From a virus, in the IMG/VR virus record IMGVR_UViG_3300024996_000004: DNA of 64,000 nucleotides. The stretch is one strand, 5' to 3'. This document shows, in pieces, positions 22,143 to 45,791 of this stretch. The number at the start of each line of letters is the position of its first letter. Position 1 is the first letter of the stretch. The notes under the pieces were generated by a model. That model saw only the letters and a list, made by a program, of their open reading frames with translations, was not told where the DNA came from and made no database searches. Position numbers and translations under genes: made by a program.

Positions 22143-25046
22143 ATGTCAACATTAGCAAATAATTTCAAAGATTCATTCTTATCAAAGAAACAAGAAGAAT
22201 ATTCAATCGAAGAATATTTGGAGTTATGTAAAACTAATAAAGATTATTATGCCAATGCTGCTGAACGTATGTTAAAGGCTATTGGAGAACCAATTCTAGT
22301 AGACACTGCTAATGATTCTAGATTATCTCGCATTTTTTCTAATCGTAAAATAAAAGTTTATCCAGCTTTCAAAGATTTTTATGGTATGGAAGATGTAATA
22401 GAGAACATTGTAAATCATTTTAAACATGCTGCGCAAAATCTTGAAGAATCTAAACAAATTCTCTATCTTCTTGGTCCTGTTGGCGGTGGTAAATCTAGCT
22501 TGGCTGAAAAATTGAAAAAATTGATGGAAAAAGAACCTATATACGTCCTTAAAGCTAATAATCAATTATCACCCATTTTCGAATCTCCATTGGGACTATT
22601 TTTCGAAGATAAATATGCAGATATATTAGAAGAAAAATATAACATTCCTAAGCGATATTTGAAAGTAACTGCATCTCCATGGGCCATTAAACGTCTAAAT
22701 GAATTTGATGGAGATTTATCAAAGTTCTCTGTAGTTAAAATATATCCATCTATTCTCAATCAAATTGCTGTCTCTAAAGCTGAACCGGGTGATGATAATA
22801 ATTCAGATATTGCCGTGCTTGTAGGTTCAGTTAATATTAATAAACTTCAAAAATATGGAGAAGATGATCCCGATGCTTATGGATTTACTGGATCATTGAA
22901 TATTGCTACTCAAGGCATTATGGAGTTCGTTGAAATGTTCAAAGCTCCGTTGAAGATGTTGAATCCATTATTAACAGCTACTCAAGAGCGTAATTACAAT
23001 GGTACAAGACGTTTCGGAGCTATTCCATTCCAAGGTGTAATCTTGAGTCATTGTTTTAGTGATGATACCGAATTATTAACAAAACAAGGATGGTTAACTC
23101 ATGATAAAATCGATAGCAATACTGAATTAGCTACATTGAATACTGATACAAATATTATTGAATTTCAAAAACCATTGAATGAATATAAGCAACATTATTC
23201 AGGTAAGATGATTCATTTTTCATCTAATTCAATGGATCATTTGGTAACTCCTAACCATAAAATGGTTTATCATACTCAATTTAATGATACTTGGAATCGT
23301 GTAACTGCGGACGAATATGGTGAAACTGGTAAAATAGTCGCAGTGAGTGGAATTACTAATATTCCCGATTATGATATTTCCGATGAAATGTTACGATTAA
23401 TTGTATGGACTGTAACTGATGGCACATTGCAAGGAAACAAAATTCGTTGGCATTTAGGCAAAGATCGAAAGATTGAGCGTTTAACTCGATTACTTGACGA
23501 TATGCATATTGATTATCAATTAATAGATACTAGTTATGTAACTGTTGGAGGTCTTCATACTAAAAATATTGTTATTGAAAACTCTTTCAATTTAGATAAA
23601 TCTTTACCAGAATATTTCCATGAATTATCTTCAAGACAAGCACAAATTGTATTGGATGAATATTCTCATACTGATGGTACGAGAACTGCAACATCACGTT
23701 CAACAACAATTGGAATTGGAACATCATATGATTCGAAAGATGTTATTACACATTATCAGCTATCTTCAAACAAGATTGAAGATATTGATATGTTACAATA
23801 TCTATCGGTATTGTCAGGCAATAAAGCTGATTTAACTTCTCACACTAAAGGTAGATACACAGCGCAAAATTTCTTGTCTATTCGACTTGGTGTGACTGAA
23901 ACTCGTACCGATTATGCACGAAATGAGACTACTTATGATGGTTTGGTGTTTTGCTATGAAACTCCCAATCATACATTAATCGCTCGACGCAATGGTAAAG
24001 TCATTGTTACAGGAAATAGCAACGAGCAGGAATTTGACACATTCAAGAATAACAAAGCTAATGAAGCGTTTCTTGATCGTGTGAATTTAATTAATGTTCC
24101 ATATTGCTTAAGAGTAAGTGAAGAAGTCGAAATTTACAAGAAGCTCCTTAACAATTCTGAATTAAGTAATGCGCCAGTTGCTCCTAAAACATTAGAAATG
24201 TTAGCACAATTTTCTATTCTATCAAGATTATATGAACCAGAAAATTCAGAACTATTTCCAAAACTGTTATCTTATGACGGTGAGTATATTAAAGAAACTT
24301 ACCCAAGAGCTAAGACTTATAAAGAATATAAGGAACAAGCTGGTGTAAGAGAAGGCATGGATGGATTGTCTACACGATTCGCATATAAAATTCTAAGTAA
24401 AACTTTTAACTATGATACTGATGAAATCGCAGCCAATCCAATCCATCTTATGTATATCTTAGAGAAACAGATTATGCATGAATCTTTCTCTAAAGAAAAA
24501 GAAGAACGTCTAATCAATTTTATTGAAGCACATTTAAAAACTAAATATGCAGAATTCGTTGGTGAAGAATTACAAAAGGCTTACTTAGAATCATATAAGG
24601 ATTACGGACAAAATTTGTTCGATAATTATATAAAATATGCCGATTTCTGGATTCAAAATAATGATTATCGTGATCCTGATACAGGAACCATGATGAATCG
24701 AGATACATTGAATTCAGAGTTGGAGAAGATAGAGAAGGCTGCAAACATTTCCAATCCTAAAGATTTCCGCAATGAAATCGTAAACTTTGCATTACGTGTT
24801 AAAGCTGAAAATGGCGGAAAAAGTATTGATTGGACTTCTTACGAAAAACTGCGTAGAGTCATTGAAAAACGCATGTTCTCTCAAACCGAAGACATTTTGC
24901 CGATCATATCTTTTGGAACTAAAAAGTCATCTGATGATCAAACAAAACATCAAGATTTCGTTAATAGAATGCTTTCAAGAGGATATACTAATAAACAGGT
25001 TCAACTTATTGTTAATTGGTATATTCACTATTCCAAATCTAACTAA
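22143..25046 (+). CDS. prkA: PrkA/YeaG family AAA+ serine kinase, intein-containing
   Basis: GPVGGGKSSL Walker A, EFVEMFKAP, LNPLLTATQE, NEAFLDR and GLSTRF. About 645 aa after intein removal. Confidence 0.93.
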   Translation: MSTLANNFKDSFLSKKQEEYSIEEYLELCKTNKDYYANAAERMLKAIGEPILVDTANDSRLSRIFSNRKIKVYPAFKDFYGMEDVIENIVNHFKHAAQNLEESKQILYLLGPVGGGKSSLAEKLKKLMEKEPIYVLKANNQLSPIFESPLGLFFEDKYADILEEKYNIPKRYLKVTASPWAIKRLNEFDGDLSKFSVVKIYPSILNQIAVSKAEPGDDNNSDIAVLVGSVNINKLQKYGEDDPDAYGFTGSLNIATQGIMEFVEMFKAPLKMLNPLLTATQERNYNGTRRFGAIPFQGVILSHCFSDDTELLTKQGWLTHDKIDSNTELATLNTDTNIIEFQKPLNEYKQHYSGKMIHFSSNSMDHLVTPNHKMVYHTQFNDTWNRVTADEYGETGKIVAVSGITNIPDYDISDEMLRLIVWTVTDGTLQGNKIRWHLGKDRKIERLTRLLDDMHIDYQLIDTSYVTVGGLHTKNIVIENSFNLDKSLPEYFHELSSRQAQIVLDEYSHTDGTRTATSRSTTIGIGTSYDSKDVITHYQLSSNKIEDIDMLQYLSVLSGNKADLTSHTKGRYTAQNFLSIRLGVTETRTDYARNETTYDGLVFCYETPNHTLIARRNGKVIVTGNSNEQEFDTFKNNKANEAFLDRVNLINVPYCLRVSEEVEIYKKLLNNSELSNAPVAPKTLEMLAQFSILSRLYEPENSELFPKLLSYDGEYIKETYPRAKTYKEYKEQAGVREGMDGLSTRFAYKILSKTFNYDTDEIAANPIHLMYILEKQIMHESFSKEKEERLINFIEAHLKTKYAEFVGEELQKAYLESYKDYGQNLFDNYIKYADFWIQNNDYRDPDTGTMMNRDTLNSELEKIEKAANISNPKDFRNEIVNFALRVKAENGGKSIDWTSYEKLRRVIEKRMFSQTEDILPIISFGTKKSSDDQTKHQDFVNRMLSRGYTNKQVQLIVNWYIHYSKSN
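23052..24017 (+). mobile_element. Intein (322 aa) with degenerate LAGLIDADG endonuclease
   Basis: Starts CFSDDTELLT, contains the block B motif LVTPNHKM, LAGLIDADG-like LIVWTVTDG and EYSHTDG, and ends RRNGKVIVTGN followed by Ser. It splits the conserved PrkA H-SNE motif. Confidence 0.92.
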
Positions 25047-25058
25047 TGGTAACTATTG

Positions 25059-26381
25059 ATGCCTATTATTATTGATAGAACTAAGGAGAGTAAGAATAAA
25101 AGCTCTCCTAATCGTGACAAATTTATAAAGCGTGCAAAAAATAACATTAAAAAGTCTATCAAAAAATATATTACTGATGAGGCTGATATTAAGTCGATTT
25201 CCAATGGAAAGGACAAACGTGTACGAGTTTCTAATAAATCATTAGATGAACCTCAAATTGTTCATTCCCCACATAATGTTCGTAAACATGTATATGTTGG
25301 CAACAAAAATTATGTGGCTGGTGATGAAATTGAAAAAGATAATGAAGAGTCGTCTAGTAGTGGTTCGGGTCCGGGCGAACTTATGAATGATGATTTTTAC
25401 TTCACATTATCTCATGAAGAATTTTTGCAATTATTTTTTGATGATCTGGAATTACCCGATTTAATAAAAAAACAACTGATCAGTGAAGAAGATTTTCAAA
25501 CTAAGCCTGCTGGATTTACAGCAGATGGCCCACCATCGCGATTAGACTTATTGCGGACAATGAAGAACTCATTAAAGAGAAAATATTCGATTTTTGGTTC
25601 TATTGAAGAAGAATTAGAAAAATATTATAAACAATTAGAAGAAACTGAATCCGAAGAAGATAAACTCATTATTCAATTAAAAATTGATGATTTATTGAAG
25701 CAGAAAAACAATATTCCATTTATTCAAGATTTGGATTTAAGATATAGAAAAACTGAAATTGTACCTATTCCAGTAACTCGCGCAGTCATGTTCTGTTTGA
25801 TGGATGTCAGCGGAAGTATGTCAGAATGGCATAAAGAAATGGCTAAACGATTTTTCATGATTTTGTATCTATTTCTGACTAAACAATATGAACATGTTGA
25901 TATCGTATTCGTAAAACATCATCATGAAGCCTTTGAGGTTGATGAAGATAATTTCTTCTATTCTCCCGAAAGTGGAGGCACTATTGTATCTTCGGGATTA
26001 GACATGATTAATACAATTATTAATGAAAGGTTTAATAAACCATATTATAATGTATACATTTCACATTGTAGTGATGGAGATTCATGGCGCGATGATGATG
26101 AGGCCGTGATTACTAATATGAGAAAATTATTGAATAAAACACAATATTATGCTTATATAGATATTGATAGAAAAGATGGACATGAGAACCCTATATATGC
26201 ATTGTTTGGAGTGAAAAATACAAACACAACGGATGAAGATTCCGATTTAATAAAAATTTTCACAAAAATTAAAGAAGATTTCCCTAAAAAACTTTCCGAA
26301 AAATTACAATTAAGACATATTACAGATGCTTCACATATCTATGATGTATTCCGAAGCTTGTTTGAGAAGAAATTATCATGA
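25059..26381 (+). CDS. yeaH: YeaH/YhbH (DUF444) vWA-domain protein
   Basis: IIDR..NKS..NR.KF, FFDDLELP, DLDLRY, AVMFCLMDVSGSM (MIDAS), ESGGTIVSS and SDGD motifs. Confidence 0.92.
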   Translation: MPIIIDRTKESKNKSSPNRDKFIKRAKNNIKKSIKKYITDEADIKSISNGKDKRVRVSNKSLDEPQIVHSPHNVRKHVYVGNKNYVAGDEIEKDNEESSSSGSGPGELMNDDFYFTLSHEEFLQLFFDDLELPDLIKKQLISEEDFQTKPAGFTADGPPSRLDLLRTMKNSLKRKYSIFGSIEEELEKYYKQLEETESEEDKLIIQLKIDDLLKQKNNIPFIQDLDLRYRKTEIVPIPVTRAVMFCLMDVSGSMSEWHKEMAKRFFMILYLFLTKQYEHVDIVFVKHHHEAFEVDEDNFFYSPESGGTIVSSGLDMINTIINERFNKPYYNVYISHCSDGDSWRDDDEAVITNMRKLLNKTQYYAYIDIDRKDGHENPIYALFGVKNTNTTDEDSDLIKIFTKIKEDFPKKLSEKLQLRHITDASHIYDVFRSLFEKKLS

Positions 26382-27889
26382 CAGAAAAACTAAGAACAAC
26401 AGGTGATTGGACATACGAATTATTATCTCAATATTACAATGAAATAGAAATCATTGCAAAAGATGAATTGGGATTAGATGTGTATCCCAATCAATTAGAA
26501 GTCATTTCATCACAACAAATGTTAGATGCTTACAGCACGCATGCCATGCCTGTTATGTATAATCATTGGCGTTTCGGTAAATCTTTTGTTCAAAATCAAA
26601 CTGCATACGACAAAGGTCATATGAATTTGGCTTATGAAATAGTGTCGAATACTAACCCATGCATTTCATATCTTATGGATGAAAATAGTATCATGATGAT
26701 GGCGCTTGTTATTGCACATGCTGGATTTGGTCATAATTACTTTTTCAAGAATAATTATCTTTTCCAAGAATGGACAGACGCATCATCTATTGTAGATTAT
26801 TTGCTTTTTGCAAAGAAATATGTAACATATTGCGAAGAAAAATATGGCGCGGAAGAAGTCGAACAATTTTTAGATGCTTGTCATGCTTTAGAATTGTATG
26901 GTGTTGATAAGTACAAAAGAAGTAGAAGTTCCATTAAGCTTAATGAACATGAAAAAAAGCTTGAATCCATGATGTTCAACGCTAAAAATTATGATGATGT
27001 TATAAGTTCTACAGTACCCAAAAAACAATCTGATCCTAAAACAGACGAACATGAAAGTAAGTTTGCAAATTTTGAAAATATGGAACCTGAAGAAAATTTG
27101 CTATATTTCTTAGAAAAGAAAGCGCCATATTTGGAAGAATGGCAACGAGAGATTATTAGAATAGTACGTAAAGTTTCACAATATTTCATGCCACAACGAA
27201 GCACTCAATTAGGTAATGAAGGATTTGCTGTCATGGTGCATTATTATATCATGAACAGATTATACGAAAAAGGAATAGTCGATGAAGGATTTTGGTTAGA
27301 ATTTTTAGAATCACACACCGCCGTTATTGGTCAACCCGGTTACGATCATCCGTATTATGGTAGAATTGGCATTAATGTTTACGCTTTAGGGTTTGCAATA
27401 TACATGGATATCAAACGTATATGCATGGAACCGACCGATGAAGATAAAGAATATTTTCCATGGGCAGGAAATGGTAATTGGATAGAAACCATTAAAAAAG
27501 CAGCAAAAAATTATAGAGATGAAAGTTTTATTCAACAATTCTTATCTCCTAAAGTTGTTCGTGATTTTAAAATGTTTAGTATCCTAGATGATCCTGACGA
27601 AGATGTCATCAAAATTACCAACATTCACAATAGAGAAGGTTTCTTAGCTATACGTGATGCTTTAGCTAAAATGTATGATATTTCTGAAAGATTACCCAAT
27701 CTTCAAGTCTACAAAGTAGATGTGGAGACTAGAACTCTACAACTTAGACATATATCATCTCAAAATAAATATTTGGACGAGAATGAAACTGTTTCAGTAT
27801 TAGATCATCTTAGACATATATGGAATTTTGAAATTGAATTATCATCCATAGATGATGATGGTAATGTTTATGAAATATTTAACTGTTAA
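26378..27889 (+). CDS. spoVR: SpoVR/YcgB family protein
   Basis: YPNQLEVI, MPVMYNHWRFGK, AYEIVSN.NPCISYLM, AHAGFGHNYFFKNN and NEGFA motifs. Confidence 0.93.
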   Translation: MTEKLRTTGDWTYELLSQYYNEIEIIAKDELGLDVYPNQLEVISSQQMLDAYSTHAMPVMYNHWRFGKSFVQNQTAYDKGHMNLAYEIVSNTNPCISYLMDENSIMMMALVIAHAGFGHNYFFKNNYLFQEWTDASSIVDYLLFAKKYVTYCEEKYGAEEVEQFLDACHALELYGVDKYKRSRSSIKLNEHEKKLESMMFNAKNYDDVISSTVPKKQSDPKTDEHESKFANFENMEPEENLLYFLEKKAPYLEEWQREIIRIVRKVSQYFMPQRSTQLGNEGFAVMVHYYIMNRLYEKGIVDEGFWLEFLESHTAVIGQPGYDHPYYGRIGINVYALGFAIYMDIKRICMEPTDEDKEYFPWAGNGNWIETIKKAAKNYRDESFIQQFLSPKVVRDFKMFSILDDPDEDVIKITNIHNREGFLAIRDALAKMYDISERLPNLQVYKVDVETRTLQLRHISSQNKYLDENETVSVLDHLRHIWNFEIELSSIDDDGNVYEIFNC

Positions 27890-27916
27890 AAATGTGGTTA
27901 AAAATAATTTTATTTG

Positions 27917-27966
27917 TATAAATAGTTTTATGAAGTACTTGACAAACCAAATTTTCATGTTAAGCT
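27917..27966 (+). promoter_or_regulatory. Promoters of the tRNA array: TATAAATA (27917-27924) and TTGACA (27939-27944)...TG-T-TAAGCT (27961-27966)
   Basis: Both lie upstream of the leader peptide ORF. Confidence 0.6.
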
Positions 27967-27998
27967 TCTACCATATCGAAACACAACAGAGAAAAGCT

Positions 27999-28094
27999 AT
28001 GAACACAATTAATAATAATAAAAATTATGATCATAATATTGACTATAAATTTAGTCAAAGTGCTTCTTTGTCTATTGGAAAAGGTAACGAGTAA
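27999..28094 (+). CDS. Putative attenuator leader peptide (31 aa)
   Basis: MNTINNNKNYDHNIDYKFSQSASLSIGKGNE, with a purine-rich AGAGAAAAG upstream. It overlaps the antiterminator strand. Confidence 0.65.
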   Translation: MNTINNNKNYDHNIDYKFSQSASLSIGKGNE

Positions 28095-28149
28095 AATCAT
28101 AACCTAACCAGAAATTCAAAGAAGCTCGCGAAATGTGAGCTTTTTTATT
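28062..28149 (+). terminator. Attenuator: antiterminator (28062-28070 / 28117-28125) competing with a terminator (28122-28142 plus U-tract)
   Basis: GCTTCTTTG pairs with CAAAGAAGC (9 bp), with inner TGG/CCA and AGGT/ACCT pairs. Terminator is AAGCTCGC-GAAAT-GTGAGCTT-TTTTATT. The two structures share nt 28122-28125. Confidence 0.75.
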
Positions 28150-28194
28150 GTAATAAAATGATCTTTTAAAAATTTAAATAATATGAAAATATTT

Positions 28195-28278
28195 GGGCAA
28201 GCGGTGAAGTTGGAGAGTCACACCTGTCTGTAAAACAGGCGCTATGCTGAGTAGGTTCGATTCCTACCTTGCCCACCA
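28195..28278 (+). tRNA. tRNA-Tyr(GTA)
   Basis: Acceptor GGGCAAG/CTTGCCC, anticodon arm CCTGT-CTGTAAA-ACAGG, long variable arm, TTCGATT T-loop, encoded CCA. Confidence 0.92.
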
Positions 28279-28337
28279 TTTTTGGATATTTTATTCTATA
28301 TTAATAAAATATTCACAAAATAATGAGAATATTTTGG

Positions 28338-28414
28338 GGTAACTATGATGGAGTGGTATACATACTATGCTGTGAACATAGGTTTCGTCGGTTCGATTCC
28401 GACTAGCTACCCCA
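28338..28414 (+). tRNA. tRNA-His(GTG)
   Basis: G-1:C73 pair, anticodon arm CTATG-CTGTGAA-CATAG, T-arm GTCGG-TTCGATT-CCGAC, CCA. Confidence 0.9.
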
Positions 28415-28430
28415 AAGTATTCTTAATAAT

Positions 28431-28508
28431 GGTACATGAGGCTGCTAGGTGTGGCTGCTGACCTGTCACGTCAGAGATAGCTCGGTTCGAATCCGTGATG
28501 TACCGCCA
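28431..28508 (+). tRNA. tRNA-Asp(GTC)
   Basis: Acceptor GGTACAT/ATGTACC, G73, anticodon arm CTGAC-CTGTCAC-GTCAG, CCA. Confidence 0.9.
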
Positions 28509-28518
28509 ACCAATTTAT

Positions 28519-28593
28519 GGGATGATAACTGAGATGGATTAGGAAGGCACTGAAGATGCCTTGAGGTTGGATCGTTACCAACTCATCCCACCA
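28519..28593 (+). tRNA. tRNA-Phe(GAA)
   Basis: Acceptor GGGATGA/TCATCCC, anticodon arm AGGCA-CTGAAGA-TGCCT, atypical T-loop ATCGTTA, CCA. Confidence 0.85.
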
Positions 28594-28599
28594 ATTTAT

Positions 28600-28677
28600 G
28601 GATTCTAGCGCGAAGAGGTAAGCGACTCGACTTTTAATCGAACAGACTACCGGGTTCAAGCCCCGGAGAATCCACCA
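28600..28677 (+). tRNA. tRNA-Lys(TTT)
   Basis: Acceptor GGATTCT/AGAATCC, anticodon arm TCGA-CTTTTAA-TCGA, T-arm CCGGG-TTCAAGC-CCCGG, CCA. Confidence 0.88.
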
Positions 28678-28683
28678 AAATAT

Positions 28684-28757
28684 GCGTTTGTAGTTCAAAG
28701 GTAGAACGGGAGTCTGTTAAACTCTTGACGGTGGATCGATACCACCCTGACGCGCCA
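28684..28757 (+). tRNA. tRNA-Asn(GTT)
   Basis: Acceptor GCGTTTG/CTGACGC, G73, anticodon arm GGAGT-CTGTTAA-ACTCT, T-loop ATCGATA, CCA. Confidence 0.87.
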
Positions 28758-28771
28758 AACAAAGAAACAGC

Positions 28772-28846
28772 GGGTCACAAACTTTGATGATGAAGCCACG
28801 CCTCTTAAGCGTAGAGAATTCGGTTTGAATCCGAAGTGACCCACCA
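28772..28846 (+). tRNA. tRNA-Lys(CTT)
   Basis: Acceptor GGGTCAC/GTGACCC, anticodon arm ACGC-CTCTTAA-GCGT, T-arm TTCGG-TTTGAAT-CCGAA, CCA. Confidence 0.85.
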
Positions 28847-28851
28847 GATTA

Positions 28852-28880
28852 TTGACTAGGTTTTAAAAACATGTTAAGAT
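28852..28880 (+). promoter_or_regulatory. sigma70-type promoter TTGACT-17-TAAGAT with extended -10 TG
   Basis: Immediately after the tRNA array. Shares CATGTTAAG with the 27961 promoter. Confidence 0.6.
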
Positions 28881-28906
28881 AATGAAAATGTATGCGGAAT
28901 AACAAT

Positions 28907-29176
28907 ATGGCTTTATATACAAAAACACATAACCCTAAAGACATTCCTGAATCAGGCGATTTAAAAATAAAGCGTAAAATTATTTGGTATCCAAAAACAC
29001 TTCGATATTATGAAGATGGAAAAAGTTTATCAAGCTGGATTTATCAAACAAGATGGTTAGGAATCGAAACGATTATATATCGCTATAGTTATGAATCTAT
29101 TTTAACGAAAACAGGACATATTGTTAATGAATGGAAATGGGTTCCGTGGGCATGGGATCGATGGGAAAAAGTTTAA
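28907..29176 (+). CDS. Small Trp-rich hypothetical protein
   Basis: Ends WKWVPWAWDRWEKV. The start could be 28892 or 28907. Confidence 0.55.
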   Translation: MALYTKTHNPKDIPESGDLKIKRKIIWYPKTLRYYEDGKSLSSWIYQTRWLGIETIIYRYSYESILTKTGHIVNEWKWVPWAWDRWEKV

Positions 29177-29181
29177 AATAT

Positions 29182-29271
29182 AGTACGTGACCGAGCATAG
29201 TGAACGGGATCGGCTGATAACCGATTGAGAATATAATCTCATGAATGGTGCGATACCATTACGTACTACCA
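29182..29271 (+). tRNA. tRNA-Ile(GAT) with long (class II-like) variable arm
   Basis: Acceptor AGTACGT/ACGTACT, anticodon arm ATCGG-CTGATAA-CCGAT, 18-nt variable region with TGAGA/TCTCA stem, T-loop TGCGATA, A73, CCA. Confidence 0.82.
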
Positions 29272-29311
29272 CAGATAAATGTGATATTTCAACAAGATTT
29301 GAGAGTAATAT

Positions 29312-30144
29312 ATACATTGGATTTTACAAAATAATTTATTTAATGAAGAAGGTTATCAAGTATTGCTTGATAACCTTCTTCGTTTTAATTTTAAATATTC
29401 TATTCACAAAGTTGTTCCTTTTATTGGTGAATTAATTCCTGAACCCGAGATTGATACTAAAAATGTCATATGTATGGGTTCATACTCTTTGAGGAATGTA
29501 GCAAAAAAATATGAATGAAATCCCGGAGTGTTTAATTTAGAACCACAAACTTTTGAGATTCAAAAACAGCATTGGGGTGAAAATATGCTCAATTATGAGT
29601 CTATAATAGCACCATTCAAGGATGCGATTTTCACTGAAGATCATATGTTTATTCGACCTATTGAAGATTCTAAATCTTTCGCCGGTAAAATCATTTCAAA
29701 AGAAGAATTTGAAGCTTGGCAACATTCTATAGTGAAGCTTAAAGAAGATTATGGTCAAGGACAAAATTTTGGTGATCAATTAATTCAGATTTCATCAATT
29801 AAGAAAATTTATGCTGAATATCGTTTTTGGATTGTAGATCAACAGATAATTTGTGGATCGTTATACAAACGTGGTGATAAAGTTATCTATTCACCAAAAT
29901 AGATAATCATGTATATTCTTTTGTGACGAAAATTCTTAAGACTAAAGACAATTGCAAAAATGTAACATTATCTGTAACTAATAATGGATGGCGACCGCAT
30001 GATGCATTTGTGCTTGATGTATGCGAAACAGATAAAGGTATGCGTGTAGTAGAAATTAATACTTTAAATTCTGCCGGATTTTATGCTTGTGATATAGCAC
30101 AATTAGTTTTGGCATTAGATAATAAATTTAATATAGAAAATTAA
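29312..30144 (+). pseudogene. Disrupted ATP-grasp (R2K-like) protein gene
   Basis: Continuous frame IHWILQNNLFNEEGY...KKYE*NPGVF...FIRPIEDSKSFAG...EYRFWIVD, then a -1 shift near 29896-29899 into FVLDVCE..VVEINTLNSAGFY. Lesions: ATA at the start position, TGA at 29516-29518, and the frameshift. Confidence 0.78.
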
Positions 30145-30403: not shown

Positions 30404-30623
30404 AATTATAATTTTTATGTATGAAAAATATGCTCTTATATATGGTAACATAATTAGTTATGGATTCATGGGTGAATGTTCTGGTGAAAAATATTATGAA
30501 TTCATGTATAATTTTTGGCATAAAAAATATTTAAATTTAGGTTACAATGATATAAATTTTAATGTTTGGATTAATGCTGGAGGATATGGTTCAACATACA
30601 AACATTTATTAAAACAAAAATAA
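30366..30623 (+). CDS. Hypothetical protein (start uncertain, possibly ATG 30417)
   Basis: ORF in the early gene run. Confidence 0.4.
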   Translation: MKSLKMLKSLKNKIIIFMYEKYALIYGNIISYGFMGECSGEKYYEFMYNFWHKKYLNLGYNDINFNVWINAGGYGSTYKHLLKQK

Positions 30624-31715: not shown

Positions 31716-32312
31716 ATGTCTAAAAAATATGCAATGTTAATCAAAGTTGATGGTGCTAATAATAACAACAAATTCTATGAAATAACATGGAACGATGATG
31801 ATTCAGTAACTGCACGATATGGCCGTTGTGGAAATATTGGTGTTACTGAAAATAAAGGTTATGGAGAAGCAGCGTTTGATAAAGTTTTTAAAGCAAAAAC
31901 TAATCCAAGTAAAGGATATAAGAAAGTTGATGTATTGACCAATGAATCAACTGGTGCTCCAACAAATTCATCGAACAAGATAACATCTTCATTAACAGAA
32001 ATTGCGAAACGAGATATTGCTAATAACAATCCTATTATGGATGATTTGTTAGATCGCCTAGCAAAAGTTAATCAACATCAATTATTACAAGCAACTGGTG
32101 ATCAAATCGACATTGTTAATGGTGTTGTTCAAACTGTTTTAGGACCAATTACTTTAAATTCAGTAACCAATGCTCGTACAAAATTAAATAATTTGAAAAA
32201 ATTAATCCAATATGGGACATTGGATGACACATATCTAGATGATTTAAATCAATATCTAACTTATATACCGCAAGTTGTTCCAAGAAATCGTGGATGGCCA
32301 ATACATTTTTGA
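31716..32312 (+). CDS. WGR-domain PARP-like protein, N-terminal part
   Basis: NNNNKFYEI...VTARYGRCG (WGR-like), FDKVFKAKT..KGY, then a helical regulatory-like region ending YLTYIPQ. Confidence 0.75.
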   Translation: MSKKYAMLIKVDGANNNNKFYEITWNDDDSVTARYGRCGNIGVTENKGYGEAAFDKVFKAKTNPSKGYKKVDVLTNESTGAPTNSSNKITSSLTEIAKRDIANNNPIMDDLLDRLAKVNQHQLLQATGDQIDIVNGVVQTVLGPITLNSVTNARTKLNNLKKLIQYGTLDDTYLDDLNQYLTYIPQVVPRNRGWPIHF

Positions 32313-32998
32313 CAAATTATTCTTCTTTTGACAAACAATATGAATTATTAGATCAAATTGAACAATCAATTCATTTACACGAAATGACTCCAAAAACTGT
32401 AGAAACTAATCCTAAAAAAGAAGTTTCTAAAATATTTGGATATAGTCTAGAAAAAATGCACGATAATAAAGAAATAAGCAGAATTGAAAAATATTATCGT
32501 TCCAATATAAACAAATCTCATGCCTGTTCTCATCTTAAGTTGAAAAATGTTTATAAGTTAAGTAATGATACTGCAACTGAAATTTTCGTGAAAAAATCTC
32601 AAAAACTTGGAAATGTTAAAGAATTATGGCATGGGACTCGAATTTGGAATATATTAAGTATTCTTAAGAGTGGTCTAAGAGTACCAACAGCCAGTCAAGT
32701 TATGGTAGGATCAATGTTTTCTAGAGGAATATATTTCTCTGATCAATCATCAAAAGCTATTAACTACGCATGGGGATATTGGGACAACAAAGGGAGAACA
32801 AACAATTGTTTTGCTTTTATAGCTGGCGTAACGATGGGAAAAGAGTATATACCATCAAAACCATTTAATAATGGTATACCATCTGGATATGACTCATGTT
32901 TTGCCATGGCACATCGTAGTGGAGTTCAAAACAATGAAATGGTTGTTTACGATGAATCTCAAGTCAATTTAAAATATTTATGTGAGTTTGACGGATAA
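32294..32998 (+). CDS. PARP-like ADP-ribosyltransferase catalytic part
   Basis: H-Y-E triad: LWHGTR, GSMFSRGIYFSD..SKAINY and NNEMVVY. It lies in the -1 frame relative to the 31716 ORF. Confidence 0.85.
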   Translation: MANTFLTNYSSFDKQYELLDQIEQSIHLHEMTPKTVETNPKKEVSKIFGYSLEKMHDNKEISRIEKYYRSNINKSHACSHLKLKNVYKLSNDTATEIFVKKSQKLGNVKELWHGTRIWNILSILKSGLRVPTASQVMVGSMFSRGIYFSDQSSKAINYAWGYWDNKGRTNNCFAFIAGVTMGKEYIPSKPFNNGIPSGYDSCFAMAHRSGVQNNEMVVYDESQVNLKYLCEFDG

Positions 32999-39854: not shown

Positions 39855-39928
39855 GCTCGATTAATTTAATGATAAAATGCTGATTTTACATGTCAGACAC
39901 GATGGTTTGATTCCATCATCGAGTACCA
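39855..39928 (+). tRNA. tRNA-Val(TAC), AT-degenerate
   Basis: Acceptor GCTCGAT/ATCGAGT, anticodon arm CTGAT-TTTACAT-GTCAG, T-arm GATGG-TTTGATT-CCATC, CCA. The D-loop GG is replaced by GA. Confidence 0.7.
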
Positions 39929-44328: not shown

Positions 44329-44417
44329 GGAAAAGTGCGTGAGTCAGGATTAAACGGGCACCCTGCTAAGGTGTAATCAGAAATGATTCGTGGGTTCGAA
44401 TCCCACCTTTTCCGCCA
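44329..44417 (+). tRNA. tRNA-Ser(GCT)
   Basis: Acceptor GGAAAAG/CTTTTCC, G73, anticodon arm GCACC-CTGCTAA-GGTGT, long variable arm, CCA. Confidence 0.92.
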
Positions 44418-44423
44418 TCTTAT

Positions 44424-44498
44424 GGCTACTTAATTCAATGGTAGAATGTTTCTTTCATATGGAAAACGTTGTTGGTTCGATTCCAACAGTAGCCACCA
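44424..44498 (+). tRNA. tRNA-Met(CAT) (elongator Met; Ile2 not excluded)
   Basis: Acceptor GGCTACT/AGTAGCC, anticodon arm TTTCT-TTCATAT-GGAAA, T-arm GTTGG-TTCGATT-CCAAC, CCA. Confidence 0.82.
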
Positions 44499-45715: not shown

Positions 45716-45791
45716 ACGTCGGTAATTCAATTGGGAGAAATTTTGCCTCCAAAGCAAAAAGTTGTAGGTTCGAGTCCTACCCGGCGTGCCA
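45716..45791 (+). tRNA. tRNA-Trp(CCA)
   Basis: Acceptor ACGTCGG/CCGGCGT, G73, anticodon arm TTTGC-CTCCAAA-GCAAA, TTCGAGT T-loop, CCA. Confidence 0.9.

Follow-up and report, generated by a model that had tools for sequence, protein, structure and literature searches.

For about 50 years the purpose of phage-encoded tRNAs has been debated, and the chief proposals are codon compensation, host shut-off and counter-defence. The window analyzed here, a 64,000-nt stretch of viral DNA, raises this question in a specific form. It carries a compact tRNA array that an earlier note described as the full queuosine (GUN) set plus both Lys isoacceptors and Phe, and considered to be matched to the targets of tRNA-cutting nucleases rather than to codon usage. 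We asked what defines this set and when the phage would call on it.

Sequence evidence, including an XacN1-like capsid protein, identifies the window as part of the genome of an uncultured jumbo phage. The source record (G000) has a CheckV completeness of 30% and a terminal repeat of only 40 bp. Its major capsid protein is 85-89% identical to those of IMG/VR phages of 340-350 kb, and 61-65% identical to those of XacN1 and related phages (XacN1 itself, 65%). We compared four phages, namely G000, G001, G002 and G004, with XacN1 and G005 as more distant genomes. Megablast of the array region against cultured phages returned no match, and a distant search matched single tRNAs only, covering ≤11% of the query. 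The closest bacterial homologues of SpoVR, which is encoded near the array, were betaproteobacterial and ~50% identical, too distant to name a host. A linkage of the array to the prkA-yeaH-spoVR genes was rejected, because IMG/VR loci with the same SpoVR neighbour lack nearby tRNAs.

Composition, conservation and codon load of the array

The results of tRNA calling bore out the described cluster: Tyr(GUA), His(GUG), Asp(GUC), Phe(GAA), Lys(UUU), Asn(GUU) and Lys(CUU) genes lie head to tail at 28195-28846 (Table 1). They are separate from the other tRNA genes detected in the window by ARAGORN and Rfam (Val at 39855, Ser-Met at 44329-44498 and Trp at 45716). All seven listed members are present, and an eighth, tRNA-Ile(GAU), had been missed; it lies just downstream in G000 and inside the array in G002 and G004, has a fold z of -2.96 and gave no Rfam match. 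ARAGORN at default settings found six of the seven, with Lys(CUU) requiring a lowered threshold. Against Rfam RF00005 (gathering threshold, 29 bits), the Tyr, His, Phe, Lys(UUU) and Asn genes scored 41.6-58.9 bits. The tRNA-Lys(CUU) gene had no Rfam match, even when its region was searched alone, and its D loop is atypical, without GG; compensatory changes were found in 14 of its 22 pairs across the four phages. For tRNA-Asp, which has a D stem of 3 bp and one U-U mismatch in the T stem, compensatory changes were found in 13 of 18 pairs.

Several details were read directly from the genes. CCA is encoded by all seven, tRNA-His has a G-1:C73 pair, tRNA-Asp has G73, C38 and G10, and position 37 of tRNA-Phe is G, not A. 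The GUN anticodon loops are 7 nt long with U33-G34-U35-N36 (Tyr CUGUAAA, His CUGUGAA, Asn CUGUUAA, Asp CUGUCAC). A queuosine link through phage genes was rejected because no TGT gene is present: there was no PF01702 match in G000, G001, G002 or G004.

Table 1. Positions of the leader, tRNA and downstream features in the window
Feature	Position	Strand	Evidence
T4-late-like promoter motif TATAAATAG	27917-27925	+	Clade consensus YTAAATAG-W-TTTA; aligned, conserved in 4/4 phages
Sigma70-like promoter: TTGACA, ~16 nt, (TGt)TAAGCT	27939-27966	+	Pattern match; conserved in 4/4 phages
Leader ORF, 31 codons, MNTINNNKNYDHNIDYKFSQSASLSIGKGNE	27999-28094	+	ORF conserved in 4/4 phages
Region 2, GCUUCUUUG, Ala-Ser-Leu codons; predicted antiterminator 5' strand	28062-28070	+	Invariant in 4/4 phages, also at third codon positions
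Region 3, CAAAGAAGC, complementary to region 2, overlaps terminator stem base	28117-28125	+	Alignment and folds
Intrinsic terminator: AAGCUCGC, loop GAAAU, GUGAGCUU, U run	28122-28146	+	Present in 4/4 phages
tRNA-Tyr(GUA)	28195-28278	+	ARAGORN gta; Rfam 49.1 bits
tRNA-His(GUG)	28338-28414	+	ARAGORN gtg 28339-28414, plus encoded G-1 at 28338; Rfam 50.4 bits
tRNA-Asp(GUC)	28431-28508	+	ARAGORN gtc; Rfam 35.3 bits (small region searched alone)
tRNA-Phe(GAA)	28519-28593	+	ARAGORN gaa; Rfam 41.6 bits
tRNA-Lys(UUU)	28600-28677	+	ARAGORN ttt; Rfam 41.8 bits
tRNA-Asn(GUU)	28684-28757	+	ARAGORN gtt; Rfam 58.9 bits
tRNA-Lys(CUU)	28772-28846	+	ARAGORN at lowered threshold only; cloverleaf fold
Second promoter, same type (sigma70-like): TTGACT, 17 nt, TAAGAT with TG	28852-28880	+	Scan and pattern match
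94-aa ORF between array and tRNA-Ile	28892-29176	+	ORF call
tRNA-Ile(GAU), eighth module member	29182-29271	+	ARAGORN; 90 nt, long variable arm
Strong terminator-like hairpin	29342-29384	+	Sole scan call in 27700-29400

The roster of the array recurs in G001, G002 and G004, but the genes are rearranged and there are duplications, introns and HNH insertions. This constancy through rearrangement supports the view that the grouping is non-random. Complete relatives carry 39-43 tRNAs covering essentially all amino acids; the array is thus one block of a large complement, not a hand-picked set, and there is no selection of the set at the genome level. In the AT-richest phage, the syntenic stretch lacks the G001 tRNAs for AGG, CAG, GAG, ACG, GUY, ACY, GGY and GCN. 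The array is probably a co-transcribed tRNA operon and a conserved block, 'module A', of the jumbo-phage tRNA complement. An arms-race signature was rejected, since the median identity of the module tRNAs (0.67-0.69) gives no sign of faster divergence than that of the other phage tRNAs (0.68-0.73).

The codon-usage comparison proposed in the earlier note came out opposite to its expectation. With load defined as phage codon usage alone, six of the seven decoding units were among the eight most used (ranks 1, 2, 3, 6, 7, 8 and 23 of 32; hypergeometric p = 2e-4), and the pattern was alike in the four phages. In reading heavily used phage codons, these six behave as codon-compensation tRNAs of the Bailly-Bechet type would. 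Together, Asn, Lys, Ile, Tyr, Phe, Asp and His account for 41.1% of phage codons. Load fails to predict His (rank 19-24), the sole unit that it leaves unexplained, and Glu and Leu(UUR), at ranks 3-6, lie outside the module. The chance of finding all four GUN units among seven of 32 decoding units is p ~1e-3, a post hoc value that becomes ~0.015 when codon load is considered. AAG is, as had been stated, the rarer Lys codon (14.0 vs 62.0 per 1000); in G002 and G004 most Lys codons are AAG, so Lys(CUU) looks inherited. The 'queuosine set plus Lys' pattern is mostly what codon load alone would produce in these phages, a sobering outcome for that claim, with only His left over.

The leader region and a predicted switch

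Between the promoters and the first tRNA gene, all four phages have a small ORF followed by an intrinsic terminator. A simple scan of G000 called neither the leader promoter nor the leader terminator, and the case for both is conservation together with folds; the sigma70-like promoter was absent from the scan because its -10 hexamer matches at only 3 of 6 positions. A YTAAATAG-type motif also lies directly upstream of XacN1 tRNA clusters. In the ORF, 16 of the 17 codons after the start specify N, I, K, Y, D, H or F. Its length is 29-32 codons across the four phages, and residues 2-17 draw on all seven module amino acids and no others in G002 and G004, and on these plus one Thr in G000 and G001. 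Codon changes between the phages are synonymous or are substitutions within the seven-residue set, and none affects the Asp and His codons. The GC content of the leader is ~24% in a genome of 42.5%. Peptides of leader-like composition are rare in six-frame translations, and in that of G002 (350 kb) the sole 9-mer composed of exactly these seven residue types falls within the leader. No clear Shine-Dalgarno sequence precedes the ORF, but a loose test assigns one to just 34-50% of genes in these phages.

The complementarity between regions 2 and 3 (8-9 nt) is invariant, and their pairing forms in truncated-transcript folds of all four phages; as both regions are invariant, there is no covariation between them. 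The folds also gave an alternative partner of region 2, a purine-rich stretch ahead of the start codon. The leader stop codon lies 18-30 nt past region 2. The terminator shows one compensatory pair change in G000 (C-G to U-A), and the full-length minimum-energy fold favours it in three of the four phages, which means that a switch would need to be kinetic. The gap between the terminator and the first tRNA gene is only 14 nt in G002, leaving no room for a separate promoter. The corresponding AT-rich spacers of G000, G001 and G004 are 33-48 nt long, and an internal promoter could hide there.

Downstream of the array, the 94-aa ORF had no PHROG or Pfam match and no relative in IMG/VR. The terminator scan called nothing between the array and tRNA-Ile, and the hairpin beyond tRNA-Ile is probably the end of the transcription unit. 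The other tRNA clusters of G000, G001, G002 and G004 showed no matched leader and terminator; these other clusters and those of XacN1 lie directly behind promoters. Degenerate leader-pattern scans of IMG/VR and metagenomes returned only the three relatives already in the comparison, and G005, with a capsid protein 67% identical, has neither module nor leader.

From the conserved promoter, the leader ORF and a terminator with a competing antiterminator, we predict that transcription of the array is inducible by tRNA shortage, in an attenuation of the trp/thr/ilv type. Transcription would begin at the tandem promoters, cross the leader ORF and meet the terminator. When the cognate tRNAs are scarce, a ribosome would stall at the N, K, I, Y, D, H or F codons and leave GCUUCUUUG free to pair with CAAAGAAGC at the terminator foot; the terminator would not form, and RNA polymerase would enter the tRNA genes. 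With smooth decoding, the ribosome would cover GCUUCUUUG and transcription would stop. We infer that the leader is translated and that the switch operates. A demand-matched, leader-gated operon that acts as a self-adjusting supply of limiting tRNAs in an AT-rich phage is a moderately probable account of the locus, and the usual cause of shortage would be demand rather than nuclease attack.

Competing explanations for the set

Alternatively, the block may replace host tRNAs cut by anticodon nucleases, with the leader as an alarm for their loss. The nuclease specificities given in the earlier note agree with the literature (PMC10264068, PMC11555353, PMC12409363), and published specificities, including PMC13096335, fit a replacement role in which the targets would be Tyr, His, Asn and Asp for E5-like nucleases, Lys and Asn for PrrC and PARIS, and Tyr for PtuAB/Septu. 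The four GUN tRNAs and Lys(UUU) are all in the array, even His with its low codon load, and a rescue device would require just such a shortage-sensing switch. RNA-ligase-family proteins (PF09414) occur in complete relatives and XacN1 encodes PNKP and Hen1 for tRNA repair (PMC5852040), making tRNA damage a plausible pressure on the lineage. AriB targets Lys(UUU), Thr(UGU) and Asn(GUU), and its cleavage of E. coli tRNA-Lys(UUU) is abolished by a U39-to-A change (PMC12409363); phage tRNA-Asn has A at position 39. The array's Lys(UUU), however, reads U36-A-A-U-C-G41 and retains U39-C40 of the AriB site. By isotype, Tyr, Lys and Asn agree with the targets of PtuAB, PrrC and AriB, whereas His and Asp match colicin E5 only, and Phe and Ile fall outside the nuclease targets cited in the earlier note. 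Colicin E5 is an interbacterial toxin, and we know of no anti-phage system with its specificity. The anticodon loops are also ordinary (Tyr, Asp and Asn as above; Lys CUUUUAA), and we take those of Tyr, Asp, Asn and Lys to be identical to the E. coli loops. Beyond the tRNAs themselves, RtcB and PNK3P genes were searched for and, like TGT, not found. Codon load already covers six of the seven units, the tRNAs of the lineage serve essentially every amino acid, XacN1 and G005 have their GUN tRNAs spread out, and the divergence of the module tRNAs is unexceptional. A shortage-sensing leader is thus compatible with rescue after tRNA depletion, but the claim that the set follows nuclease targets rather than codon usage is unsupported; a nuclease-target reading of the set is possible and not needed. 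We consider replacement of cleaved tRNAs unlikely. Rather less likely is the specific version of an inducible counter-defence, in which the loss of host Q-family or Lys tRNAs to cleavage would make ribosomes stall on the leader, so that the terminator would open and phage replacement tRNAs would be produced in a burst. If this version were true, the counter-defence target list would be written in the leader peptide.

General host independence would make the block part of a near-complete tRNA set, grouped without meaning beyond shared transcription, and serving to sustain translation while host tRNAs decay after shut-off or to widen host range. The 39-43 tRNAs of the relatives favour it, as do the promoters directly ahead of the other tRNA clusters and the 56 tRNA genes of XacN1, which cover all 20 amino acids and were read as independence and wide host range (PMC5852040). 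It leaves unexplained that the exact roster stays together through rearrangements and that a leader of the module's own amino acids is found at this block only, and we regard it as improbable. A historical accident, in which the roster is simply inherited and the ORF is either an unremarkable small gene or AT-rich spacer left open by chance, would suit an arrangement seen in only four related genomes; such peptides readily arise from AT-rich DNA, since K, N, I, Y, F and L have codons made of A and T only. Against this stand the constant roster amid shuffled gene order, the invariant Asp and His codons, the synonymous changes and low GC of the leader, the rarity of similar peptides in six frames and the conserved complementarity of region 2 with the terminator foot, and accident seems very unlikely. 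Under the demand-matched supply that we favour, the phage itself appears to name its tRNA unit, with seven amino acids spelled out in the leader, and to state when it is needed, namely when ribosomes stall on those codons. If unit and timing are both written in the leader, the question of what phage tRNAs are for would turn into a reporter experiment on read-through.

Relation to known systems

One close counterpart is the jumbo phage XacN1 (Yoshikawa et al. 2018, PMC5852040), which shares a related virion, many clustered tRNAs, CUA suppressor tRNAs and the YTAAATAG motif, and whose tRNAs match codons used more by the phage than by its host (PMC5852040). In contrast to the array, XacN1 divides the members into Lys-Lys-Tyr and Asn-Phe-Asp-Ile, has His beside Ala-Val-Ser, and shows neither a block uniting the seven amino acids nor a comparable leader; all that is found ahead of Lys-Lys-Tyr is a K- and Y-rich ORF of 13 codons.

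T5-like phages counter retron Eco7 with tRNA-Tyr, and PARIS with tRNA-Lys, Thr and Asn (PMC11555353, PMC11464382, PMC12409363). As here, phage Tyr, Lys and Asn tRNAs are clustered in a tRNA-rich region, and shortage of these tRNAs is the condition that our leader would sense. Protection in T5 was demonstrated experimentally and acts through variant nucleotides (such as A39 and C41 in tRNA-Lys) or a strong promoter, whereas the array has mostly canonical loops and also includes Phe, Ile, Asp and His.

The tRNA L-array of Anabaena PCC 7120 (trn operon, PMC8421152) resembles the predicted behaviour of the module in being supernumerary, normally silent and switched on under impaired translation. 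It differs in being cellular and plasmid-borne, in being controlled by a protein repressor, TrcR (PMC10272220), with no leader peptide, and in its broad roster, which is unmatched to any sensor.

A literature search found no published leader-peptide attenuator of tRNA genes. The closest parallel in mechanism is with the attenuators of amino-acid operons (thr, ilvGMEDA, his, trp and pheA; pheL, PMC3082878), which likewise have a short ORF rich in regulatory codons, mutually exclusive antiterminator and terminator hairpins, and sensed codons that match the product of the operon. The phage-borne leader described here would differ from them in controlling tRNA genes instead of biosynthetic enzymes and in sensing seven amino acids together.

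Gene calls and codon load of the tRNA block

Six tRNA genes (Tyr, His, Asp, Phe, Lys(ttt) and Asn) were called by ARAGORN head-to-tail on the + strand, with Rfam scores of 41.6-58.9 bits for Tyr, His, Phe, Lys(UUU) and Asn; the score of tRNA-Asp came from an Rfam search restricted to a small region. The Lys(CUU) gene was matched by Rfam in neither a wide nor a small-region search. A cloverleaf fold was predicted for it, and an alignment with its counterparts from three related phages shows pairing maintained through changes on both sides at 14 of its 22 pairs, and at 13 of 18 in tRNA-Asp. Read from the sequence, all seven array genes encode CCA, tRNA-His carries G-1:C73, and tRNA-Asp carries G73, C38 and G10. 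The ARAGORN and Rfam calls, with the covariation for Lys(CUU), confirmed the anticodons and coordinates listed in the earlier note, from which an eighth block member, tRNA-Ile(gat), was absent. This gene precedes a terminator-like hairpin, the sole one called by a scan of 27700-29400.

Features of the window around the tRNA block
Feature	Position	Strand	Evidence or remark
prkA(yeaG)-yeaH-spoVR trio	22143-27889		complete
T4-late-like motif TATAAATAG	27917-27925	+	kept in four phages
sigma70-like promoter (TTGACA, ~16 nt, TGtTAAGCT)	27939-27966	+	pattern match
Small leader ORF	27999-28094	+	present in four phages
Ala-Ser-Leu codons GCUUCUUUG	28062-28070		invariant in four phages
Complement CAAAGAAGC	28117-28125		overlaps 5' foot of terminator stem
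Intrinsic terminator (predicted)	28122-28146	+	present in four phages
tRNA-Tyr(gta)	28195-28278	+	ARAGORN, Rfam
tRNA-His(gtg)	28339-28414	+	ARAGORN, Rfam
tRNA-Asp(gtc)	28431-28508	+	ARAGORN, Rfam 35.3 bits
tRNA-Phe(gaa)	28519-28593	+	ARAGORN, Rfam
tRNA-Lys(ttt)	28600-28677	+	ARAGORN, Rfam
tRNA-Asn(gtt)	28684-28757	+	ARAGORN, Rfam
tRNA-Lys(ctt)	28772-28846	+	ARAGORN at lowered threshold only
tRNA-Ile(gat)	29182-29271	+	ARAGORN; 3' of 94-aa ORF
Terminator-like hairpin	29342-29384		
R2K-clade ATP-grasp domain	29528-30144		ORFs 29528-29902 and 29923-30144
WGR and PARP domain genes	31716-32998		PARP: Pfam E = 4e-29
tRNA-Val(tac)	39855-39925		Rfam 57.8 bits, missed by default ARAGORN
tRNA-Ser(gct)-Met	44329-44498		ARAGORN/Rfam
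tRNA-Trp	45716		ARAGORN/Rfam

Several features of individual tRNAs were also observed. The tRNA-Ile(GAU) gene is 90 nt long, has a long variable arm resembling a class II tRNA, and folds well (z = -2.96), with no match in Rfam. tRNA-Phe has G37 in the window phage versus A37 in the uncultured relatives G001 and G002, the Asp genes of G002 and a third relative, G004, have U37 (loop CUGUCUA), and U8 is missing from several array tRNAs. Between phages of the clade whose capsid proteins share 85-89% identity, the tRNAs share only 60-75%.

The IMG/VR record holding the window (104,899 bp, 31% GC, CheckV 30% complete) has a 'direct terminal repeat' of only 40 bp (record 1-40 and 104860-104899) and is probably an assembly fragment, not a complete genome. 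Its major capsid protein shares 61-65% identity with those of the jumbo phages XacN1, Xoo-sp13, CM1 and RAS14, and 85-89% with those of four uncultured IMG/VR phages. Three of these four have tRNAs and served for comparison: G001 (340 kb, 34.7% GC; 39 tRNAs by ARAGORN, 40 by Rfam), G002 (350 kb, 42.5% GC; 41 and 43) and G004 (171 kb, 39.4% GC; 32 and 30). Because these relatives carry tens of tRNAs, the array is one block of a large tRNA complement, not a hand-picked set. The cultured XacN1 has 56 tRNA genes for all 20 amino acids, matching codons used more by the phage than by its host (PMC5852040). tRNAs with the CUA (amber suppressor) anticodon, resembling those reported for XacN1, occur in G001 (152451-152540), G002 (26819-26975, two in tandem) and the more distant relative G005 (~111535-111607); none was found in the 105-kb record of the window phage.

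Codons were counted in 104 long ORFs of this record (32,113 codons), and the genetic code was split into 32 decoding units (NNY and NNR half-boxes). The ten commonest codons were AAA, AAT, GAT, GAA, TTA, ATT, TAT, CAA, ATA and TTT, and the seven amino acids of the array made up 41.1% of all codons. By codon load the units ranked Lys 1, Asn 2, Asp 3, Ile-AUY 6, Tyr 7, Phe 8 and His 23; six of the eight top-loaded units thus belong to the array (hypergeometric p = 2e-4; Mann-Whitney p = 8e-4), and the same pattern held in the three relatives despite their differing GC content. With six of its seven units in the top eight, the set does not bear out the earlier proposal that it matches nuclease target spectra 'rather than codon usage'. 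The presence of all four GUN units (Tyr, His, Asn and Asp, the queuosine set) among seven of 32 has p = 1e-3, but three are already in the top eight, and once load is accounted for only His is surprising (p roughly 0.015, by our own post hoc arithmetic). Load accounts neither for the presence of His nor for the lack of Glu and Leu(UUR), ranks 3-6, in the block. The Lys codon AAG occurs at 14.0 per 1000 in the window phage (AAA share 0.82) and is the major Lys codon in G002 and G004 (AAA shares 0.32 and 0.39); the Lys(CUU) gene therefore looks like an inheritance from relatives less rich in AT. The G001 tRNAs reading AGG, CAG, GAG, ACG, GUY, ACY, GGY and GCN are missing from the syntenic stretch of the window phage, the AT-richest of the four, and this absence likewise follows codon usage.

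The leader and its predicted RNA switch

The same leader arrangement lies directly 5' of the first tRNA in all four phages. The leader peptides are MNTINNNKNYDHNIDYKFSQSASLSIGKGNE in the window phage, MNTINKKNYDHNIDYKFSQGASLSDKGGW in G001, MNIFNIHNYDHNIDYKFSRGASLTVEMDKTCI in G002 and VNNKFIKNFDHNNDYKNSHGASLSEGSGTQEM in G004. Residues 2-17 are drawn from exactly N, K, I, F, Y, D and H in G002 and G004, and from the same seven plus one Thr in the other two; these seven, with Ile among them, are the amino acids that the block serves. Among the phages the N-terminal part varies in sequence but keeps its composition. Core changes either leave the residue unaltered (AAT/AAC, ATT/ATC, GAC/GAT, TTG/TTA) or exchange one member of the set for another (Y to F, I to N, F to N). 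Peptides of this kind are rare: six-frame translation of G002 (350 kb) gave no 9-mer of exactly the seven residue types other than the one in the leader, and 16-mers with 15 or more residues of the set number only a handful anywhere.

The Ala-Ser-Leu codons of the leader are invariant even at third positions, and their pairing with the complementary segment at the terminator stem was predicted in all four phages when the transcript was cut before the 3' arm. In full-length folds of three phages, the Ala-Ser-Leu segment pairs instead with a purine-rich stretch before the start codon. The terminator has one compensatory change in the window phage, C-G to U-A. The gap between the U run and the first tRNA is just 14 nt in G002, where the array would therefore be transcribable by read-through only. 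No matched leader was found at the other tRNA clusters of these phages, which lie directly behind promoters. The leader region has, as predicted from these features, the architecture of a multivalent leader-peptide attenuator.

The prkA trio lies directly upstream of the leader. Its 967-aa PrkA-like protein has an apparent intein-like insert (~residues 290-626) matching inserts in phage ribonucleotide reductases, and the nearest bacterial homologues of SpoVR (~50% identical) are from Chromobacteriaceae-type Betaproteobacteria. The R2K-clade ATP-grasp domain is split across adjacent ORFs, perhaps by a frameshift, perhaps as a truly split gene, and the adjoining WGR and PARP catalytic domain genes look like a phage PARP-like ADP-ribosyltransferase pair.

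Roster and order of the block among relatives

The block reads Tyr-His-Asp-Phe-Lys-Asn-Lys', then Ile, in the window phage (Lys', Lys(CUU)); Tyr-His-Asp-Phe-Lys'-X-Lys-Asn(intron), then Ile, in G001 (X, an unassigned tRNA-like gene); Tyr-Phe-Tyr-Ile-Asp-Asp-Asn-His-Lys-Lys' in G002; and Lys-Tyr-Phe-Tyr-Ile-Asp-Lys'-Asp-Asn-Asn-Ile(tat)-His in G004. It is conserved as a roster, not as a gene order. After it, all four phages carry the clusters Val/Gln/Thr, Thr, Ser-Ser-Met and Cys-Ala-Gly-Trp in series, and the window order Val, Ser-Met, Trp agrees with this. G005, at 67% capsid protein identity, carries the clusters Leu-Glu-Leu-Tyr-Phe and Pro-Val-His-Thr-Ile and has solitary Asp and Lys genes; XacN1, unlike the window, has Lys-Lys-Tyr and Asn-Phe-Asp-Ile, with His beside Ala-Val-Ser. 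Since the grouping dissolves in these two, the joint placement of all four GUN tRNAs is specific to this subclade. Intron-like inserts occur in Asn of G001 (~319035-319160) and a His-like gene of G002 (~204985-205110), and the G002 block holds an HNH-like ORF between tRNAs (spacers within 202348-205150), which suggests homing-endonuclease traffic in the block.

Explanations of the array and known systems

We lean modestly toward the array being an operon, induced by shortage, that would supply tRNAs for the seven amino acids; the tRNAs of these amino acids carry 41% of the decoding load. The shortage could arise from demand, host shut-off or nuclease attack. The earlier proposal is partly supported: the set appears to be a selected, co-regulated unit, but the clause 'rather than codon usage' fails the codon test suggested with it.

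That the array counters anticodon-nuclease attack on host tRNAs seems to us unlikely. The specificities on which the proposal drew are in print: E5 cuts Q-family tRNAs and PrrC cuts Lys (PMC10264068), PtuAB targets Tyr (PMC11555353), and AriB targets Lys(UUU), Thr(UGU) and Asn(GUU) (PMC12409363); Phe and Ile, however, fall outside them. A rescue device could well use a switch that senses shortage; RNA-ligase-family proteins are encoded by complete relatives, and PNKP and Hen1 by XacN1 (PMC5852040). Searches for TGT, RtcB and PNK3P genes found none. tRNA-Asn has A39, but Tyr, Asp, Asn and Lys have ordinary anticodon loops, and Lys retains U39-C40 of the AriB site. Compared between phages, block tRNAs are no more diverged than those of other clusters (median identities 0.67-0.69 vs 0.68-0.73), and outside the subclade the GUN set is not together. 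Colicin E5 is moreover an interbacterial toxin, and no anti-phage system known to us shares its specificity.

A counterpart of the leader in a cultured phage may exist in XacN1 (AP018399.1), where a 13-codon ORF (30428-30469; MNKPYYKRYYAKA) with Lys or Tyr at 7 of 13 residues lies just 5' of the Lys-Lys-Tyr cluster; a clear terminator was not visible there. We found in the literature no published multivalent leader-peptide attenuator controlling tRNA genes. The proposed arrangement would combine two known kinds, phage tRNA clusters and leader-peptide attenuation.
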